Source: an uncultured Planctomycetia bacterium (lineage in GTDB: Bacteria > Omnitrophota > Gorgyraeia > Tantalellales > Tantalellaceae). From it: a stretch of DNA of 64,000 bases. Below are positions 11,122 through 36,759 of the stretch, one piece after another (within the stretch, counting starts at the first letter, position 1; the number at the start of each line of letters is the position of its first letter). The stretch is from positions 276 to 64,275 of the forward strand of contig CAZGOG010000006.1 of NCBI GenBank assembly GCA_964527555.1. The letters are read 5' to 3'. The notes under the pieces are model-generated. The model ran no database searches, was not told where the DNA came from, and saw nothing but the letters and a program-made list of their open reading frames with translations. The translations under genes and the position numbers were made by a program.

Positions 11122-11526
11122 TTATTCCTCTTTAACCAGAGACTTTATTGTTATTGATTGGAGCTTTTTGACAAGATCTTTCTCTATATTGTCCAGTTTT
11201 TTCTTAAGGTAACAGGTCCTCACCCTTGGGCAGGTCCTGCCTTTAAAAAGGTGTTCATTCAGCGTAAAACGCCCCTGGAATATCTCGATAATATTAACAA
11301 TGTTTATCTTCCCGGGATCGACAACCAGGGAAAAACCGCCGCTTCTGCCCTTATATGACTTAAGCAGGCCCTTTTTATTCAAAACTTGAAGTATTTTCCT
11401 CAAAAAAGGTCTCGGCATATCGAGTTCTTCCGAGAGACTGGAGACAGTAAACATCCCGTCCCTGGAGGAGGCTATACAGGTCAGGGCTCTTACGGCATAA
11501 TCGGTATCCCTGGTAAGCAGCTTCAT
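11122..11526 (-). CDS. Rrf2-family transcriptional regulator
   Basis: The N-terminal wHTH reads MKLLTRDTDYAVRAL, typical of Rrf2/IscR. There is a C-terminal CxxxxxC pair plus E/H, so it may ligate a cluster. Confidence 0.85.
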   Translation of the reverse strand: MKLLTRDTDYAVRALTCIASSRDGMFTVSSLSEELDMPRPFLRKILQVLNKKGLLKSYKGRSGGFSLVVDPGKINIVNIIEIFQGRFTLNEHLFKGRTCPRVRTCYLKKKLDNIEKDLVKKLQSITIKSLVKEE

Positions 11527-13890: not shown

Positions 13891-14523
13891 TTACTTGAAA
13901 ATCTCGCCTGTCTCTCCCGACCAGAACAAGAGATCCAGCTCATCCATCGGGATACCTATTTTTCTTGAGAATCTTCTCAGTTTTTCTTCAAGTGACAAAT
14001 ATTTTTTCTCTGATATTCCATCGGGAACCTGCCGGATGATACCGTATCTAACCATGTTCCTTAGTATGTGTACGTCAAGTATAGCCAGATCCCGACCGAA
14101 TCCGATATTCCTCAAAAAATGACTCGCTTCTTTAAGCCCTATTCCCTTAACATTACACGCCAGCCAGTGACGCGTCTTGAAAACGTCTCCGGCATCTATC
14201 CGCCTTTTTAACCTTAGGCTGCCGCCTTCGGTAAAAAGTCTTCTCGCCTCCACGATATAGCCGGCTTTATTGTTTGGAAAACGGACTGCTTTCAGGCCCC
14301 TTCTTATCTGAAGCCGGTTCCCCTTAAAAAGCATCCCTCTCTTTTCCAACCCGGAAACAGCTTTATCACAGTAGACCGCCTTCGACTGGGGAGTGCATAT
14401 ACAGAAACAAAGCTCGCTAAAGATCTTTCTCTCAGGTCCGTTCCATACCGCCTTGAACTCTTTCAGCCGGCTTTTTATCTTGGTCTTTTTTCTGGCGTAT
14501 TCTTCTATTAATTTATGCTTCAC
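13891..14523 (-). CDS. N-glycosylase/DNA lyase (Ogg2-type 8-oxoguanine glycosylase, HhH-GPD)
   Basis: About 210 aa with HhH-GPD-like content and a Lys/Asp pair. Size and N-terminus fit archaeal/Thermotoga-type Ogg. Confidence 0.65.
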   Translation of the reverse strand: MKHKLIEEYARKKTKIKSRLKEFKAVWNGPERKIFSELCFCICTPQSKAVYCDKAVSGLEKRGMLFKGNRLQIRRGLKAVRFPNNKAGYIVEARRLFTEGGSLRLKRRIDAGDVFKTRHWLACNVKGIGLKEASHFLRNIGFGRDLAILDVHILRNMVRYGIIRQVPDGISEKKYLSLEEKLRRFSRKIGIPMDELDLLFWSGETGEIFK

Positions 14524-14708
14524 AATACGGATTCTATAAGCATCCTGGCAATTTTAATATGAGTCACTTCATCATCACGTATAGCACTCAGCTGACTTTT
14601 TACGCCTTCATCCTGGAGCTGGTCAATATAATGATCATAAAAAGCCTTTGCCCTTTCCTCGTGGACTAGTATTTCCCGGAATTCTTTAAGCAGCATTTCA
14701 GTATTCAT
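14520..14708 (-). CDS. Ferritin-like helical-hairpin protein, half B (E...DEVTH motif)
   Basis: 62 aa and predicted all-helical. HEERAK and DDEVTH give E + ExxH, which is half a diiron site. It overlaps the upstream partner by 11 nt in a different frame. Confidence 0.4.
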   Translation of the reverse strand: MNTEMLLKEFREILVHEERAKAFYDHYIDQLQDEGVKSQLSAIRDDEVTHIKIARMLIESVL

Positions 14709-14940
14709 CTCGATTTGAGGCCCCCACTTCCAGTACCATTTTATCGATTATCTCTTTATGCCTTGAGGAGTCGCGGTGAAGCGTGGACAGGAGTTTTTCG
14801 ATCTTCTTTTTCTTCTCTATTTCCATACCCTCAGTCTGCTGGACCATAGCTTTTGCAAAACTTGCATACATCCCTATCATGCCCTCTTCGACATATACCA
14901 GTTCATTGAGCCCGGCCAAAAGCCTGTCTTTTTTCATCAT
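14698..14940 (-). CDS. Ferritin-like helical-hairpin protein, half A (E...ExxH motif)
   Basis: 80 aa and helical, with VEEG...EIEKKKKIEKLLSTLHRDSSRH. Together the two halves would form a four-helix diiron bundle. Confidence 0.4.
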   Translation of the reverse strand: MMKKDRLLAGLNELVYVEEGMIGMYASFAKAMVQQTEGMEIEKKKKIEKLLSTLHRDSSRHKEIIDKMVLEVGASNRDEY

Positions 14941-16154: not shown

Positions 16155-16640
16155 TTAAGATTCTAACACCTTTTTTAAATCAGTCAGCTTTTTTATGTGA
16201 CTCTCTTCCTCTTTAATCAGTTTGTCGATTGTCTCTGCCTCACCAGCCGATACAATCTTCTTCATATTTTCATAGAAAGTAACCGATTCTTCCTCAAGTT
16301 TTATGCCGAGTGTGACTGCCTCTATATCGCTTTTGGTGCCCGCGGCTACTTCCTTGCCCTTATCCTTCCGTGTAAAGACGTATTCCCCGGCTAACGTATT
16401 CATATAGGAAAAATAGTCTTCGGGGTAAGCGCCACTCGGCTCATACCTGCAGGAAGCCTTAAATATATCCTTGAAAATATCTATGTGTTTCTCTTCTTCT
16501 TCCGAAAGATATACAAAGACTTCGGAAGCCTGTTTACTTTGGGCCATCCGGGCAAGCTTACCATAGAAGTCCTTCCCGTTCTTCTCTATCTGTATGCCCA
16601 GTTCCACAACCTCGCAGCTTGAAAAATGCTTATCGCTCAT
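16155..16640 (-). CDS. Rubrerythrin-like ferritin-like diiron protein without a rubredoxin domain
   Basis: Carries two E...ExxH repeats (EEEKHI, EEESHIKK) at 161 aa. Confidence 0.7.
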   Translation of the reverse strand: MSDKHFSSCEVVELGIQIEKNGKDFYGKLARMAQSKQASEVFVYLSEEEEKHIDIFKDIFKASCRYEPSGAYPEDYFSYMNTLAGEYVFTRKDKGKEVAAGTKSDIEAVTLGIKLEEESVTFYENMKKIVSAGEAETIDKLIKEEESHIKKLTDLKKVLES

Positions 16641-16664
16641 CTATCCTCCCGCGCTTTTTACCGG

Positions 16665-17249
16665 TTAATAATTCTCGCAGAAAAGTTCAAAATATTCCTG
16701 CGGGTGCCTGCATGACGGACATTTCTCAATGGCCTCTTCACCCTCATGAACATACCCGCAATTACGGCATTTCCACTTACGAGGCGCCTCTCTCTTGAAC
16801 ACCTTACCGCCTTTGATGTTTGCTGCAAGCTTGCGGTAGCGGGCTTCGTGCGCCTGCTCGACTCTGGCTATGTTCTCAAAAGAAGCAGCGATCTCATCAA
16901 ATCCCTCTTTTTTTGCCACTTCGGCAGCTTCTTTGTAAAGCTTTGTCCATTCAAGATTCTCGCCCGCTGCGGCTGCTTCGAGATTGGCAAGGGTATCGGA
17001 GATAATCCCGGCCGGGTAAGCGGCCTGTATCTCAAGCTCACCCCCTTCTAAATATTTAAAGAACACTTTAGCGTGTTCCCGTTCGTTTTCTGCCGTCTCA
17101 AGAAAAAGCGCCTCGATCTGCCTGTACCCTTCTTTCCTGGCGACACCGGCAAAATAAGTGTACCTGTTCCTCGCCTGGGATTCACCTGCGAAAGAAGCCA
17201 AAAGATTTTTTTCTGTCTTTGTTCCCTTTACACTTGCCATTTTTATCAT
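16665..17249 (-). CDS. rbr: Rubrerythrin
   Basis: An N-terminal diiron ferritin-like domain (NLLASFAGESQARNRY, ENEREHA) is followed by a C-terminal rubredoxin-like CRNCGY...CPSC domain. Confidence 0.9.
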   Translation of the reverse strand: MIKMASVKGTKTEKNLLASFAGESQARNRYTYFAGVARKEGYRQIEALFLETAENEREHAKVFFKYLEGGELEIQAAYPAGIISDTLANLEAAAAGENLEWTKLYKEAAEVAKKEGFDEIAASFENIARVEQAHEARYRKLAANIKGGKVFKREAPRKWKCRNCGYVHEGEEAIEKCPSCRHPQEYFELFCENY

Positions 17250-17285: not shown

Positions 17286-17666
17286 TTATTTCCTTTTCCA
17301 AAGCATATGTATCGTACAAAATTCTCTTACTTCGACTATATCCAGATTTTTAACACAAAATTCCGCTTCAGGCGCTTCTCCGGGATTAAGCTCCGCGCGC
17401 AAAACTTTATCCGCAGTTAAGACTTCGATGAACTTTATATAATGCGCATCTTCCATGGGGTGCGGAGTGCTGCCGACTTTCACCTTGACCCCTCCTTTAG
17501 TCTCCTCGACTACCGGAACGTGCTTTTCCTTCCCCTCATCCTCGGTTTTGGGATAAAGTTTAGCCATCGGCTGACCGCAGCATACAAGGTCAGGCGCCCC
17601 TTCATGCGCGATCTCTACGACATTCCCGCATATACTGCACCTGTAAAGTTCCCTTAATCTCGTCAT
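17286..17666 (-). CDS. dfx: Desulfoferrodoxin (2Fe superoxide reductase)
   Basis: The N-terminal desulforedoxin motif reads CSICGNVVE...CCGQPM. A C-terminal SOR domain has EKHVP and His ligands. Size is 126 aa. Confidence 0.9.
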   Translation of the reverse strand: MTRLRELYRCSICGNVVEIAHEGAPDLVCCGQPMAKLYPKTEDEGKEKHVPVVEETKGGVKVKVGSTPHPMEDAHYIKFIEVLTADKVLRAELNPGEAPEAEFCVKNLDIVEVREFCTIHMLWKRK

Positions 17667-18826
17667 GATATCCCTCCCTTTAATTGTTCTTTTATACCGT
17701 TAATCGTATTTTCATCCGGCACATACTGGACCTTTATGCCTTTCAGCATATCAAAACCGCATGAACCTAATACGCCCTCTATCTCACCGATACTTTGGCC
17801 TCCCCAGCCGTAAGAACCGAACGCAAGGCCCCTCCTTCCCTTCGGGGCAAGGCCTTTCATGTAAGTAAGAAAAGCCGATACCGTAGGAAGCAATCCGTTG
17901 TTGAGCGTGGGTGAACCCACGCATATATACTTACTGTTTAGGATCCGGGTCATTATGTCTGATATATGATTAGTCTTTAGACTCATAAGATGTGAGGGTA
18001 TTCCTTTATCTTCAAAAATTTCATAAATTGCTTCTGCGATTTTTTCAGTCGATCCCCACATCGTATCATAGACGATTGTCGCTTTCGCGCTGGTAATATT
18101 ATTCGCCCATTCTTTATAAAGACCTATTATCTCCCCCAGATACTTGCGCCAGATAATGCCGTGACTAGGCGCTATCATATCGATATCGAGGCCGGAAAGC
18201 GCTTCAAGCGCTTTATCTACCTGCGCCCCATACGGCAGGACGATATTGGCATAATATTTTGCGGCTTCCTCCCTGACTATATCCCACCCCACTTGATCGT
18301 CAAAACGCTCCGGTGAAGCTATGTGCTGGCCGAAGGCATCGTTCGGAAGGAGCAGTTTATCCTCGGGTATATACGTCGCCATGGAATCAGGCCAATGGAC
18401 CATCTGGGTAAGAACGAACCGGGGGTTTCTCCTGCCGATATTTATCGCCTCGCCTGTATTAACAACCTTTAATTTCCAGTCGGCTTTATAATGTTTTTTA
18501 AGTCCCTTTTCACCGTTGGGGGATGTTATGACAGTGGCATCCGGGCATAATTTCATCAGCATGGGCAGGCTCCCCGAATGGTCCATCTCAACATGATTGG
18601 ATATGACATAATTTATTTCAGAGGGGTCTATTACCGTCCGTATCCGCTGGAGCATCTCATCACAGAGATAATGTTTGACCGTATCGACAAGGAGTATTTT
18701 TTCGTCGATGATGAGGTATGCGTTATAGGTGGATCCTCGCTGGGTAAGGTATCCATGGAAGTTTCTTAAGTTCCGGTCTATACCACCGACCCAGTATATC
18801 CCCTTTTTTATCTCAACTCGCTTCAT
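17663..18826 (-). CDS. Flavodiiron protein (FprA/rubredoxin:oxygen oxidoreductase-type). Start placed at MKRVEIKKGIYWVGG.
   Basis: A metallo-beta-lactamase-like diiron domain is followed by a C-terminal flavodoxin-like domain. The N-terminus YWVG...RNFHGY matches the FDP family. The ATGA overlap with dfx suggests translational coupling. Confidence 0.85.
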   Translation of the reverse strand: MKRVEIKKGIYWVGGIDRNLRNFHGYLTQRGSTYNAYLIIDEKILLVDTVKHYLCDEMLQRIRTVIDPSEINYVISNHVEMDHSGSLPMLMKLCPDATVITSPNGEKGLKKHYKADWKLKVVNTGEAINIGRRNPRFVLTQMVHWPDSMATYIPEDKLLLPNDAFGQHIASPERFDDQVGWDIVREEAAKYYANIVLPYGAQVDKALEALSGLDIDMIAPSHGIIWRKYLGEIIGLYKEWANNITSAKATIVYDTMWGSTEKIAEAIYEIFEDKGIPSHLMSLKTNHISDIMTRILNSKYICVGSPTLNNGLLPTVSAFLTYMKGLAPKGRRGLAFGSYGWGGQSIGEIEGVLGSCGFDMLKGIKVQYVPDENTINGIKEQLKGGIS

Positions 18827-18845
18827 GGTAAGTCTTTCCCAAGCC

Positions 18846-18989
18846 TTAATCTTCTTCCGGTTCAAATTGATCTTTTCCGACCCCGCACTCGGGACATACC
18901 CATTCTTCCGGAAGATCTTCAAATGCCTCGTTATTGTTTTCCTTGGGATCATAAATATAACCACATACCGTACACCTGTATCTTTTCAT
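18846..18989 (-). CDS. Rubredoxin (47 aa; below the ORF-track cutoff)
   Basis: A manual reverse-complement translation gives [47 protein letters not shown]. It has the classic CxxCG...CPxCG rubredoxin motifs and an SD-like GGGAGAGG upstream. Confidence 0.85.
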
Positions 18990-19089
18990 CGCCTCTCCCT
19001 TCTTTTATGCTCGCTTCTTATCCTTTATGATATAACAGATCTATATGACATTCTATATTAAAATAATATATTTTTTCCATTGATATTTA

Positions 19090-19130
19090 AGCTTAAATAA
19101 ACCCCGCATCAACGCTAGAAACCCTGATCG
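19090..19130 (-). other. Stem-loop between the small ORF and rubredoxin (candidate attenuator or processing hairpin)
   Basis: AACCCCGCATC and GATGCGGGGTT form a perfect 11-bp stem around a 19-nt loop. On the minus strand it is followed by a U-rich UUUAUUUAAG tract. Confidence 0.45.
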
Positions 19131-19162
19131 ATGCGGGGTTGTCATGAAAACTGGTGGGTAGT

Positions 19163-19246
19163 TTACCGTCTTGCCCGGGACATTCTACAGCAACCCTCTT
19201 TACAATGCGCCACGGGGCGCAGCATATATCTGACTGTAATATTCAT
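19163..19246 (-). CDS. Candidate 27-aa Cys-rich small ORF (MNITVRYMLRPVAHCKEGCCRMSRARR), possibly a leader peptide for the rubredoxin operon
   Basis: A strong SD (AAAGGAGGA) lies 5 nt before the ATG. The promoter/operator module 1 is about 50 bp upstream. An 11-bp-stem hairpin at 19090-19130 lies between its stop and rubredoxin. Confidence 0.3.
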   Translation of the reverse strand: MNITVRYMLRPVAHCKEGCCRMSRARR

Positions 19247-19289
19247 CCGTTCCTCCTTTCATGATCACCTGCTTTTTTACTGTCCTGCT

Positions 19290-19323
19290 TATAATGATAC
19301 CATATTAGTATCATTTGTCAAGG
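19290..19323 (-). promoter_or_regulatory. Sigma70-like promoter with overlapping palindromic operator, module 1 (drives the small ORF and the rubredoxin-FDP-Dfx-Rbr operon)
   Basis: The minus strand reads TTGACA-aatgatactaatatgg-TATCAT, a -35 and -10 with a 16-nt spacer. The inverted repeat TGATAC-N7-GTATCA (plus 19295-19313) spans the spacer and the -10. Confidence 0.5.
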
Positions 19324-19497
19324 GGATTAACATTTTTTAAATATATCTTAAATATCCCCTTTTATGTTTCTTGCGCTATATTAAGTAGTATACCTAGTAA
19401 TTGTAAATATCAAAACGATAAATTAAAAACACCTGCATTTTTTAAATGCAGGCTCTCTTCCCATTGTCTTGCGACAACTTGGAGGTCTTGGGAAGTC

Positions 19498-19671
19498 TTA
19501 ATAAACGTTAGGTACTTTTATACCCTCTTTTGGATTTTCACATCTTTCCTCTGCCTCGTAGTGTCTTCTTTCTTTAAACTCTTCTTGCTTGCCTTTATTC
19601 CATGCCTCGACGGGACGAAAAAAACCCGTAACGCGCGCAAAAACTTCTACGCCACACCTTCTTTTGTCCAT
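19498..19671 (-). CDS. 57-aa protein resembling the C-terminal glycyl-radical tail of class III ribonucleotide reductase NrdD (candidate 'spare part')
   Basis: Manual translation gives MDKRRCGVEVFARVTGFFRPVEAWNKGKQEEFKERRHYEAEERCENPKEGIKVPNVY. It has an RVTGF glycyl-loop-like motif and a P-x-E-x-W-N-x-GK-x-x-E-F-K-x-R-x-H tail, as I recall it from NrdD C-termini. A strong SD (GGGGGGAGG) and its own promoter are present. Confidence 0.45.
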   Translation of the reverse strand: MDKRRCGVEVFARVTGFFRPVEAWNKGKQEEFKERRHYEAEERCENPKEGIKVPNVY

Positions 19672-19715
19672 AATAAAGCCTCCCCCCTTCGCTCACAAAA
19701 AACTGTCCTGACAGC

Positions 19716-19750
19716 TTAAAAGATACCATATGGGTATCATTTTGTCAAAT
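19716..19750 (-). promoter_or_regulatory. Sigma70-like promoter with overlapping palindromic operator, module 2 (drives the NrdD-tail-like ORF)
   Basis: The minus strand reads TTGACA-aaatgatacccatatgg-TATCTT. A near-palindrome GATACC-ATAT-GGGTATC lies at plus 19722-19738. About 33 of 38 bases match module 1. Confidence 0.5.
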
Positions 19751-19785
19751 AAAAAACGCCTGGCGGTAAAGCCAGGCGTTTTTCG
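19751..19785 (-). terminator. Intrinsic terminator of gdhA
   Basis: AACGCCTGGC-ggtaaa-GCCAGGCGTT is a perfect 10-bp stem flanked by an A-run and a T-run. It lies immediately 3' of the gdhA stop. Confidence 0.7.
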
Positions 19786-19799
19786 TCTTCTCCGAAAGT

Positions 19800-21194
<1,395 letters not shown>

Positions 21195-33910: not shown

Positions 33911-34609
33911 CTATTTCCTTATCTCAAAAGAAAGTATTATCGCTTCTGCGATCTCTTTCATGGAGACCCGTTTATTCATGCTGGTCTTCCTGATCAGGCT
34001 AAAGGCCTCTTCTTCAGCGAGTCCTTGTTCCTTCATCAGAATCCCTTTTGCCTTTTCAATCTTCTTTCTGCTCTCAAGTTCTTCTTGTATGACTTTAGTC
34101 TTGACCATAAGTTCTGTATTCTCTATAGCCACCGCTGCCTGATTAGCCACCGCACTTAAGAGATCTATATCGCTTTTGGTGAACTCATACGATTCCACGG
34201 TATAAACATTTAACACGCCTATGGGCCTGTCCTTCACCATCATGGGAACGCTCAGCATTGAGACAAGTTTCTCTTTTTTAGCAAGTTCCTTTTCTTTATA
34301 CTTATCGTCTTTGGCGACATCCAGTATCACTATCGGTTTCTTCTCCTTGGCTACGCGTCCGACGATACCTTCCCCGACTTTTATTGCCCTTTCTTTGAGA
34401 TACTCCTGACTCATGGTCTGCGTAGCCCTTATGGTAAGCTCCTGTTTTTCCTCGTCAAGGAGCCATAAAGCGCATATCTTCGCGCCCATGACATTCGCAG
34501 TAAGATTCACTATAAGCCTCAGGATATCTTCCAGATAAAGATCAGACGTTATAGCCTTACTGATCCTTGTCAGAGTCGAAAGATATTCTTTTTCGGACAT
34601 TTTTTCCAT
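33911..34609 (-). CDS. GAF-ANTAR RNA-binding antiterminator-type regulator
   Basis: An N-terminal GAF domain is followed by the C-terminal ANTAR motif KAKGILMKEQGLAEEEAFSLIRKTSMNKRVSMKEIAEAII. Confidence 0.8.
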   Translation of the reverse strand: MEKMSEKEYLSTLTRISKAITSDLYLEDILRLIVNLTANVMGAKICALWLLDEEKQELTIRATQTMSQEYLKERAIKVGEGIVGRVAKEKKPIVILDVAKDDKYKEKELAKKEKLVSMLSVPMMVKDRPIGVLNVYTVESYEFTKSDIDLLSAVANQAAVAIENTELMVKTKVIQEELESRKKIEKAKGILMKEQGLAEEEAFSLIRKTSMNKRVSMKEIAEAIILSFEIRK

Positions 34610-34632
34610 GACTATATTTACCCCTTATTTTT

Positions 34633-36759
34633 TCATATCATGAACAGCATCTCCGCATAGGAAGGTAGCGGCCATATCTCATCCGGTACTAACCCTTCCA
34701 AGGCATCTACGGCCTGGCGGAGCTCGTTCATCGCAGATATTATCTTGCCGCTAGAGCCGTTTTCCAGACACTTTTCAAGTTTTTTTATGTTTTCAAGCAT
34801 CTTCTCTGTCTCTTCAGATACTTCTTTCAGAAGCTTCTTTGTAGCGGTTACTTTACCGCCGCATCCTGCGACATCTTCTACTGCCCTGGCCAAATTCGCC
34901 TGGTATTCAAGCGCTGCCGGAACAATCATCGTTTTTGCCATCGTCAAAGCAACCGATGCCTCTATGGCAGTCGTCCGTTCATACTGTTCTTTATAAATCT
35001 CATAGCGCGACATAAGCTCTGTTTTGGAGAGAACCTTGTGCCTCTCAAATAAAGAGACTACCTTTTCGTCTTTCATCACTTTAAGCGCTTCCGGGGTCGT
35101 TTTGAGATTAAGTAGACCCCGCTTTTCAGCCTCTTTGTGCCACTCTTTGGTATAGTTATCGCCGTTAAAAAGTATGCGTTTATGTTTTTTAACTATATCC
35201 TGCAATATCGACTGGAGAGCCTTGTTGAAATCCTTCTTAGTCTTGCCTGATTTCTCCAGTTTAGTGCATATCTCGTCAAGCGCGTCAGCGATAATAGTAT
35301 TCAAAACTATGTTAGCCCCGGCACAGCTCTGGTTGGACCCGACGGCACGGAACTCAAATTTATTCCCCGTAAAAGCGAAAGGCGACGTCCTGTTGCGGTC
35401 GGTCACATCACGCGGCAGAGTCGGCAGGGAAGTGACGCCTACTTGTATCGCATCTATTTTCTTAGAAGTTTTCGCACCGCCCTTCTCGATCTGTTCTATG
35501 ACATCCGTAAGCTGCTCTCCCAGAAAGATGGAAAGGATCGCAGGCGGCGCTTCGTTAGCGCCGAGCCTGTGGTCGTTTCCTGCGCTGGCTACGCTTGCTC
35601 TAAGTATGCCCGCATGAGTATCAATAGCCTTCATGAGCGCGCATATCATTGTGAGAAATTTAGCGTTCTCATGGGGGTTTTCACCCGGAGAAAGCCAGTT
35701 CTTGTCGTCAGGCCCGACAATCGACCAGTTGTTATGTTTACCGGAACCGTTAACGCCTGCAAAAGGTTTTTCATGAAGAAGACATACTAAGTCGTACTTT
35801 TCCGCGGCTTTTTTTAAAAGCTCCATCGTGATCATGTTATGATCGACGGAAAGGTTCTGCTCTTCAAAGACCGGCGCGATCTCAAACTGTGCGGGACAGA
35901 CTTCATTGTGCCGCGTCTTCGCCGGGATCCCCATCTTCCACATCTCGCGATCCAGCTCTTCCATGAAAGACATGACCCTGGTCTTTATGGCGCCGAAATA
36001 ATGGTCTTCCATCTGCTGGTGTTTTGCCGGAGCTCTGCCGAAAAGCGTCCTTCCGGTCTGAATAAGATCCAGTCGCGCTTCGTAATATCTCCTGTCTATA
36101 AGAAAATATTCCTGTTCGGGACCCAAAGTTGCGTAAGCGCGTTTATTTTTAACGTCAATACCGAACAATTTAGCCAAACGGCATACCTGTTTAGATAAAG
36201 CCGCCGCGCTCCTTAAAAGAGGCGTTTTCTTATCAAGCGCCTCACCGTGATAAGAGTAGAACGCCGTGGGTATACACAAGGTGGCTACATTCTCTCCCTC
36301 TTTTATGAAAGCCGGGGAAGTCGGGTCCCAGGCGGTATATCCGCGTGCCTCAAAAGTCGCCCTAAGCCCCCCCGAAGGAAAGCTGGATGCATCCGGTTCG
36401 CCCTTTATAAGCTCTTCTCCCGAAAACTTCATTATGACTCCGCCTTCCTGGTCAGGAGAGATGAAAGAGTCGTGTTTCTCCGCTGTTGCCCCCGTTAAAG
36501 GCTGGAACCAGTGAGTAAAATGTGTGGCGCCTTTCGACACCGCCCAGGTCTTCATAGCGTCGGCCACTTCATCGGCAATATTCGGGTCCAACGAACGGCC
36601 CTGCCTTATGGTTGAGACAAGCGACTTGTACGCAGTCTCCGAAAGGTAATTGCGCATATTCTTCAGGCTGAATACGTTTTCACCGTAAAAATCGGGCACC
36701 ATCGGTACATCCCTTTTCCTAGAGTTTTCTTTCATTATTGCCCCCCTTTTCTTAAACAT
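34633..36759 (-). CDS. glnN: Glutamine synthetase, type III
   Basis: At 708 aa the size and N-terminus fit GSIII. The GS catalytic region contains a conserved E/H/R ATP-binding stretch. Confidence 0.85.

Follow-up and report, generated by a model that had tools for sequence, protein, structure and literature searches.

An orphan gene for the glycyl-radical tail of class III ribonucleotide reductase shares an operator with an oxygen-defense operon in Omnitrophota and may encode a replacement subunit

A 57-aa protein encoded on the minus strand of the 64-kb window (the whole stretch of DNA analyzed here) is homologous to the extreme C-terminus of the class III ribonucleotide reductase (RNR) NrdD, an anaerobic enzyme, and we lean toward reading it as a radical subunit that stress would induce as a replacement part of a modular enzyme, a role whose functional steps we infer. 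The homology, the gene structure, the split architecture of the reductase in relatives, a conserved operator held in common with an oxygen-defense operon, and purifying selection on the gene were each established by computation. The reductase of this organism was probably modular to begin with, the window gene probably being the copy of its radical subunit that belongs to the stress regulon.

The Tail Gene and Its Transcription Unit

Translation of the 57-codon ORF from its ATG start gave MDKRRCGVEVFARVTGFFRPVEAWNKGKQEEFKERRHYEAEERCENPKEGIKVPNVY. Cys6 of this protein corresponds to the last cysteine of the zinc knuckle of NrdD, G16 is the presumed radical glycine, located in RVTGFF, and the glycine loop is followed by the conserved segment WNKGKQEEFKER. 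The gene and its signals are as follows:

19498..19671, minus strand, orphan NrdD glycyl-radical tail gene (57 aa), from ORF translation and profile matches
19680..19688, minus strand, Shine-Dalgarno sequence AGGGGGGAG, read directly from the DNA, 8 nt 5′ of the ATG
19720..19748, minus strand, promoter-operator module 1 (TTGACA-AAAT-GATACCCATATGGTATC-TT), serving the tail gene
19421..19453, minus strand, intrinsic-terminator-like hairpin (19453-19431) with a T run, end of the monocistronic tail transcript

Module 1 contains a sigma70-like promoter (19748-19720) with a −35 element TTGACA, 17-nt spacing, and a −10 element TATCTT with an extended −10 TG; having its own promoter, Shine-Dalgarno sequence, and terminator, the tail gene is predicted to form a monocistronic unit. 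It is flanked by gdhA and a rubredoxin operon instead of lying between a glycine-less nrdD and nrdG, and it was thus considered an orphan paralog. No nrdD-like sequence was found 5′ of the gene, a side that is occupied by the gdhA terminator, and an Rfam scan of positions 18800-19900 returned sub-threshold matches only, all on that terminator. Neither nrdD nor nrdG was found anywhere in the 64-kb window, and a scan for the glycine motif gave a single match, the tail ORF itself. A pair of ORFs of 708 and 232 aa at 33911-36759 had the sizes of nrdD and nrdG and was considered as such, but encodes glutamine synthetase III and a GAF/ANTAR regulator.

The ORF had been taken to be unannotated, which was not accurate: public gene calls include it, tagged PF13597, yet no source gives it a name of its own, and the databases offer nothing for the tail beyond an occasional “ribonucleoside-triphosphate reductase.”

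Homology to the NrdD C-Terminus and Conservation of the Family

A resemblance of the ORF to the glycyl-radical C-terminus of NrdD had been proposed in the preliminary description, and profile searches bore this out. The window tail matched the Pfam family NRDD (PF13597) with an E-value of 6.4e-9 and a score of 35.5 bits (gathering score 26.2), tail residues 5-38 aligning with profile positions 526-562, the final 37 of its 562. Matches to four NCBIfam NrdD equivalog models were confined to their extreme C-terminal ends and fell far below the cut-offs, and a search of the sequences of solved structures aligned residues 612-645 of Thermotoga maritima NrdD (4COI) weakly with the tail, at a marginal E-value of 1.2. 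The Pfam Gly_radical model (PF01228) gave no match to the window tail even at E ≤ 10, the GrcA model was absent among the NCBIfam matches, and NCBIfam release 20 contained no model for the tail. Beyond its match to the NRDD profile, the protein has the radical glycine within the RVxG(Y/F) loop of that family (RVTGFF, G16), and, consisting of 57 residues of tail only, it lacks the catalytic barrel with its active-site cysteines, with or without an ATP-cone. Judged by its residues, the window protein is a fragment-like subunit and not a reductase.

The window protein is one member of an extensive family of standalone proteins. A word-indexed protein search with the window tail returned 12 matches, all 43-61 aa long, and a tail profile searched against 1.84 billion representative proteins returned 4600 matches at E ≤ 1e-3, including 1441 at E ≤ 1e-10; the best 150 of the 4600 were all short (46-184 aa). 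In a 150-member alignment composed of P0001-P0012 (P0001 being the window tail) and the best representatives, the presumed radical glycine was kept in all members but one (149/150). The residue before it was Cys in 64 members, Thr in 51, and Val in 31, and the residue after it was Phe in 89 and Tyr in 61; the Thr and Phe that flank the glycine in the window tail, which had been flagged for evaluation as substitutions, are therefore ordinary variants of the family. Relative to other tails, pN/pS of the 31-codon core was 0.16-0.30, with synonymous sites saturated, which points to purifying selection on the tail gene. Both frame and length of the tail were conserved over phyla and phages, the frame being kept in hundreds of relatives; with the retained glycine and the low pN/pS, this marks the similarity as beyond chance. 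An AF2 monomer model built from the 150-sequence alignment was of moderate confidence only (pLDDT 70) and mostly unstructured, with one short helix.

A Promoter-Operator Module in Common With an Oxygen-Defense Operon

The tail promoter contains a perfect 6-5-6 palindrome, GATACC-CATAT-GGTATC (19722-19738), which lies between the −35 and −10 elements and overlaps the latter. A near-identical module, TTGACAAATGATACTAATATGGTATCAT, stands before the rubredoxin operon, and the features downstream of the tail gene are as follows:

19294..19321, minus strand, promoter-operator module 2 (TTGACA-AAT-GATACTAATATGGTATC-AT), before the leader mini-ORF and the rubredoxin operon
19163..19246, minus strand, conserved 27-aa leader mini-ORF MNITVRYMLRPVAHCKEGCCRMSRARR, directly 3′ of module 2
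18846..18989, minus strand, rubredoxin, first enzyme gene of the operon
17663..18826, minus strand, flavodiiron protein, FprA-type (Lactamase_B/ODP and flavodoxin domains), as a 387-aa gene call
17286..17666, minus strand, desulfoferrodoxin (Dfx)
16155..17249, minus strand, two rubrerythrin-family genes
11122..11526, minus strand, Rrf2-family regulator, distal end of the same-strand cluster

An alternative gene call on the same DNA extends the flavodiiron protein to 429 aa. Besides the rubredoxin, flavodiiron protein, desulfoferrodoxin, and two rubrerythrins, the same-strand cluster 3′ of the tail gene encodes a glutaredoxin, a thioredoxin-reductase-like flavoprotein, two small ferritin-like proteins, Ogg, DsbD, an AhpC/thioredoxin-fold protein, an ArsP permease, and the Rrf2-family regulator.

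The operator pattern TTGACA-N3-4-GATAC-N7-GTATC had exactly two full-length matches without mismatch in the 64 kb (the chance expectation in this search being 0.4 matches at a tolerance of three mismatches), and modules 1 and 2 were the two best promoter-like sites of the region. Six further genomes of Omnitrophota (L009, L011, L013, L022, L025, and L037) also had the module 5′ of an orphan tail. In L009, the tail of which is 65% identical to that of the window, it precedes both an operon of ferredoxin, cupin, and tail genes and an operon of rubredoxin, ferritin, Dfx, and rubrerythrin genes. Across the ∼2.1 Mb of sequence scanned, operators with zero or one mismatch were limited to the sites listed above plus a single one-mismatch site 5′ of nrdD in L031, and all remaining matches had two mismatches. 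The earlier claim that the tail ORF stands under the same operator as the rubredoxin, FprA, and Dfx genes thus held, and the operator, like the small reading frame, is conserved in relatives.

Both the window and L009 have an Rrf2-family gene closing the cluster, and its conserved place there makes its product the obvious candidate for a putative repressor acting at the palindromic operator. The closest curated models to the window Rrf2 protein are RirA, SufR-like, and IscR, all iron or Fe-S regulators. Judging by the genes that the co-regulated operon contains, the direction of regulation would be induction by oxidants.

Class III Reductases Split Between Two Genes

Class III RNR is naturally split in Omnitrophota, Spirochaetota, Desulfuromonadales, and Victivallales. 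Relatives of the tail were scanned in one genome per GTDB species, which yielded at least 592, and the best 80 of these loci were classified. In 44 of the 80, the genes for NrdD-large, the tail, and NrdG follow one another on the same strand, and carriers of this split type include Omnitrophota, Spirochaetota/Leptospirales, Desulfuromonadales, and Victivallales/Lentisphaeria; another 19 were orphan small ORFs without nrdD or nrdG within several kb, 10 were ordinary full-length NrdDs (700-820 aa), and seven were left without a class. The NrdD-large ORFs are 659-716 aa long (∼670 aa), match full-length NrdD with E-values around 1e-280 to 1e-300, and end shortly after the motif ...TIC(S/P)xHGYxxGEHxxCP, the glycine motif being absent. 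The operon tail, which sits between NrdD-large and nrdG, is ∼55 aa long and starts M..KC.

Alignment with fused NrdDs showed that the break falls within the second knuckle of the zinc site at the C-terminus: where fused NrdD has ...CPxCG..EVYSRVVGYFRPV, the large ORF of the split form has ...CP(Y/H)... and its tail has M..KC..EVFSRVTGFFRPV. In split operons, three putative zinc ligands (C..H...C) are located at the end of NrdD-large and the last position (Cys6) is located in the tail, where most operon tails (38/44) and nearly all orphan tails (23/24) have Cys.

Frameshifting, readthrough, and assembly artifact were considered as sources of the split and rejected. The glycine motif was missing from 118 of the 120 closest NrdD-large homologs in a database of 5.8 billion proteins, and 116 of the 120 end just past the C..HGY..CP knuckle. 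Junctions differ between lineages, many Omnitrophota (16 of the split loci listed) having an ATGA overlap and the others gaps of 15-130 nt, with all three relative frames represented, and every tail gene examined (13/13) has its own Shine-Dalgarno sequence 5-9 nt 5′ of its start. The variety of junctions, the individual ribosome-binding sites, and the glycine-less homologs of NrdD-large together argue that the split is not an artifact.

Omnitrophota is the probable phylum of the window: its best tail matches, its tail type (“TGFF”), and the neighborhood that it has in common with L009 all point to relatives in this phylum. Because NrdD of this lineage comes in two pieces, the window ORF amounts to an additional copy of a normal subunit gene, under different regulation. 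A candidate for the corresponding operon was found at locus L171, which encodes P0222 (674 aa), P0283 (a 61-aa tail), and NrdG. L171, with P0222, co-occurs with the window tail gene in run SRR14699969 and in the assembly series ERZ272567xx; no NCBI sample common to the window tail and the candidate operon protein was found, and the tetranucleotide correlation between L171 and the window (0.87) was no better than that of other Omnitrophota loci. Since tetranucleotide composition did not settle identity, the L171 operon is assigned to the window organism only tentatively, as probable.

Three assemblies, JBDRAX01 (L035/L013), CAYWDJ01 (L021/L025), and JADGBR01 (L028/L037), each contain both kinds of tail, one within the nrd operon and one orphan under the operator. 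When the C-termini of 21 operon tails and eight orphan tails were compared by reading the sequences, all 21 operon tails from Omnitrophota ended in ...SR.(T/A)(K/E).(V/I).(G/C/S), and this ending was absent in all eight orphan tails. Lacking it, the orphan tail may not be equal to the operon tail in function, and the two paralogs may differ in affinity or role.

Tails in Phages and Prophages

Among 71 IMG/VR loci, 40 contained orphan tails without nrdD or nrdG within reach, five contained split operons, and five contained full-length NrdDs; the other 21 were left without a class, 19 because they lay too near a contig end and two because nrdD or nrdG was located elsewhere in the locus. The tail P0007 occurs in an N4-like context with RNA polymerase and Gp2, the tail of L098 is flanked by the large terminase subunit and the portal, and that of L108 adjoins a helicase. 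Prophage replication modules house the orphan tails of Victivallales, the neighbors being DUF3799 (PDDEXK-like), a ParB-like protein, DUF669 plus RusA, and a helicase. GenBank phage records gave only two tail matches, the phage signal coming from metagenomic viral contigs.

Proposed Mechanism and Alternative Explanations

Oxygen irreversibly cuts all glycyl radical enzymes at the glycine that bears the radical, as is established for pyruvate formate-lyase (PFL) and full-length NrdD. In the mechanism that we propose, the reductase would be assembled from the products of three genes, specifically a large subunit of ∼670 aa, supplying ATP-cone, catalytic barrel, and ligands one to three of the zinc site at the C-terminus; a tail of ∼55 aa, supplying the fourth zinc-site cysteine and the glycine loop; and the activase NrdG. 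The tail would dock non-covalently on the large subunit, Cys6 possibly completing the zinc site, and NrdG would place the radical on G16. Oxygen would then cut only the small tail, at G16, and leave the large subunit intact; as the break would fall in the 6-kDa subunit, the 75-kDa large subunit would survive and need only a new tail. Because the same operator is present in both promoters, a redox-responsive repressor, perhaps the Rrf2 protein of the cluster, would free the tail gene together with the operon for rubredoxin, the flavodiiron protein, Dfx, and the rubrerythrins under oxygen stress, and fresh tails from the second tail gene would re-arm the surviving large subunits.

The preliminary description had cast the tail as a GrcA-like rescue of oxygen-cleaved NrdD. 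The homology to the NrdD tail, the standalone conserved gene, and the operator in common with the rubredoxin/FprA/Dfx operon fit that proposal, but its target has to be revised, as NrdD of the lineage is not full-length and is encoded by a large-subunit gene and a tail gene, and the protein does not belong to the GrcA family.

Several other explanations of the window gene were weighed against a replacement subunit. The tail could be an ordinary paralog or isoform for some other condition (e.g., reductant, growth phase, or metal supply), with no specific link to oxygen repair and with an operator that belongs to a broader redox/iron regulon. That the candidate regulator is a generic Rrf2-family protein, closest to the iron/Fe-S regulators, agrees with this, as does the placement of the orphan tails of L009 and L022 in one transcription unit with a ferredoxin-domain protein and a cupin and not with detoxification enzymes directly; however, in the window as in L009 the one further promoter found to have the operator drives rubredoxin, FprA or ferritin, Dfx, rubrerythrins, glutaredoxin, and Ogg, which is a typical O2/ROS defense set of an anaerobe, and we consider such an isoform unlikely, although the most credible of these alternatives. 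Somewhat less probable again is a regulatory decoy or brake, in which an excess of orphan tail under oxygen stress would occupy NrdG and/or the docking site of the large subunit and so limit futile radical generation, SAM use, and oxidative damage. Expression at a time when no glycyl radical could survive is indeed what an operator in common with O2-detoxifying genes predicts, and orphan tails, which lack the C-terminal motif common to the operon tails of Omnitrophota, may bind differently. Yet the radical glycine and the whole core are equally conserved in orphan and operon tails, and a blocker would not obviously need an abstractable glycine; moreover, orphan tails in phages, which need dNTPs, fit supply better than inhibition.

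The tail might instead be a cofactor that brings a radical to some partner besides class III RNR, a supposition prompted by the lack of nrdD in the window and by the varied contexts of orphan copies, but the core is nearly identical to that of tails lying between nrdD-large and nrdG, and no other glycyl-radical enzyme or activase was seen beside orphan copies, making such a partner very improbable. The suspicion that the ORF is spurious, or a non-functional remnant of an nrdD 3′ end, arises from its shortness and its match to just the end of the NRDD profile. It is effectively refuted by the complete transcription unit with no nrdD-like sequence 5′ of it and by the conserved frame and length, and the pseudogene reading was dropped on these grounds together with the pN/pS of 0.16-0.30 and the near-invariant glycine (149/150).

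Extended to the family as a whole, the replacement-subunit reading leads to a wider picture, which we hold with about even confidence: class III RNR would be modular in several anaerobic phyla, a disposable ∼6-kDa “cartridge” bearing the glycyl-radical site, with a housekeeping copy in the nrd operon and a second copy in the oxidative-stress regulon, and many phages and prophages would carry a cartridge of their own to re-arm or boost the reductase of the host. If correct, this would make class III RNR the first glycyl radical enzyme after PFL with a spare-part system, and would give RNR a new subunit architecture. The tail family, with its 4600 profile matches, is a concrete and abundant candidate for a spare part of the essential DNA-precursor enzyme of anaerobes; such a role would help to explain how DNA synthesis resumes in strict anaerobes such as Omnitrophota after oxygen pulses, and would account for the 50-aa “NrdD fragment” that phages infecting anaerobes carry and that automated annotation has left nameless.

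Comparison With Known Systems

The functionally closest system is that of Escherichia coli GrcA/YfiD and phage T4 Y06I, which are spare parts for PFL. A 2021 study of YfiD and a June 2026 review give PFL as the only enzyme for which spare parts are validated, the review describing them as known for formate lyases only; both treat other glycyl radical enzymes as an open question. Neither a class III RNR in split form nor a spare part for NrdD was found to be described in open-access papers and preprints, in agreement with the preliminary description, which knew of no such repair module. Like the window tail, GrcA/YfiD and Y06I are small, standalone C-terminal glycyl-radical segments encoded apart from the enzyme gene, and both families have phage counterparts (Y06I of T4 on the one hand, the phage and prophage orphan tails on the other). 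The proposed role, replacement of an oxygen-cleaved radical segment, would also be alike. The two are not homologous at the family level, GrcA/YfiD (autonomous glycyl radical cofactor) belonging to Pfam Gly_radical (PF01228; InterPro IPR011140; PMC8683613) and the window tail to NRDD, with no match to PF01228 or GrcA. The window tail is also much shorter (57 vs. 127 aa), without a long disordered N-terminal region, and its presumed target is already split, so that there would be no cleaved stump to displace.

In architecture, the nearest precedent is NrdJa/NrdJb, the split class II RNR of Pseudomonas aeruginosa, in which the RNR chain is encoded by two adjacent genes and the C-terminal zinc-finger part is separate (PMC4520616). 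It differs in belonging to another RNR class with a B12 cofactor and in having a C-terminal piece that bears no radical; no mention of extra, stress-regulated, or phage-borne copies was found in that account.

Compared with full-length NrdD (T4, E. coli, and T. maritima 4COI), the window tail comprises the last zinc-knuckle cysteine, the RVxG(Y/F) loop, and the WNxGKxxEF segment. It has no ATP-cone, barrel, or thiyl-radical cysteine and only one of the four zinc ligands, and it is a separate polypeptide with its own promoter.

C-termini and variants of the NrdD tails

Operon tails and orphan tails of Omnitrophota, that is, glycyl-radical tails of class III ribonucleotide reductase encoded between the nrdD-large and nrdG genes or away from both, differed at their extreme C-termini. 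The motif (N/D/E)(S/C)R.(T/A)(K/E).(V/I).(G/C/S) was conserved in all 21 operon tails (L012-L035, L048, and L171) and absent from all eight orphan tails (the window, L009, L011, L013, L022, L025, L037, and L044), whose C-termini were unrelated to it and frequently Cys-rich or acidic.

The operon tails also varied at the other end: those of Spirochaetota/Leptospirales (L040, L045, L051, L074, L080, and L083) lacked the N-terminal Cys, with K-I/V-P-V-E-V-Y in place of K-C-x-V-E-V, so that, if the tail Cys completes the Zn site, docking of the tail must differ in this lineage. Among NrdD-large homologs, one from Omnitrophota (P0263, 1006 aa) contained an intein-type domain (PF14528), and in another (P0245, 731 aa) large subunit and tail were fused in one protein, which suggests either occasional re-fusion of the two or a gene call merging two ORFs.

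Promoter-operator module and gene neighborhoods

A copy of the promoter-operator module (TTGACA-N3-4-GATAC-N7-GTATC) with one mismatch was present ∼400 nt 5′ of the nrdD-large gene in the Omnitrophota locus L031; thus, the regulon of the orphan tail and rubredoxin operon may, in some genomes, extend to the nrd operon.

L031 7513-7539, module copy, TTGTCATAAGGACACTATTGTGGTATC

Immediately downstream of the second operator/promoter in the window, ∼170 nt 5′ of rubredoxin, lies a conserved mini-ORF with its own SD, and the oxidative-stress cluster also contains an overlapping pair of small genes, with products of 80 and 62 aa; both features have counterparts in the Omnitrophota relative L009.

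Window 19163-19246 (−), mini-ORF, MNITVRYMLRPVAHCKEGCCRMSRARR
L009 10288-10359 (+), mini-ORF counterpart, MEYTQRYMLRPVTHCKEGCCIRS
Window 14520-14940 (−), overlapping 80-/62-aa gene pair
L009 13217-13637 (+), counterpart of the gene pair
Window 33911-36759 (−), type III glutamine synthetase, then GAF-ANTAR regulator and ammonium transporter

The two mini-ORF products share the core RYMLRPVxHCKEGCC, which matched no NCBIfam model, and the 62-aa product matched an EncB-type ferritin-like encapsulin cargo model weakly, below threshold. The glutamine synthetase group, with gltB, gltD, and gdhA nearby, forms a nitrogen-assimilation neighborhood surrounding the window orphan tail.

Orphan tail genes of Victivallales/Lentisphaeria were located within a conserved prophage-like replication module (L034, L038, L041, L052, L068, L072, L075, L082, and L088) encoding DUF3799 (PDDEXK-like), a weak ParB_N match, DUF669+RusA, an SPFH-domain protein, and a helicase. 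In the cultured Victivallis vadensis DSM 14823 (L043), an orphan tail of 41 aa is encoded in other surroundings, which carry no annotation.
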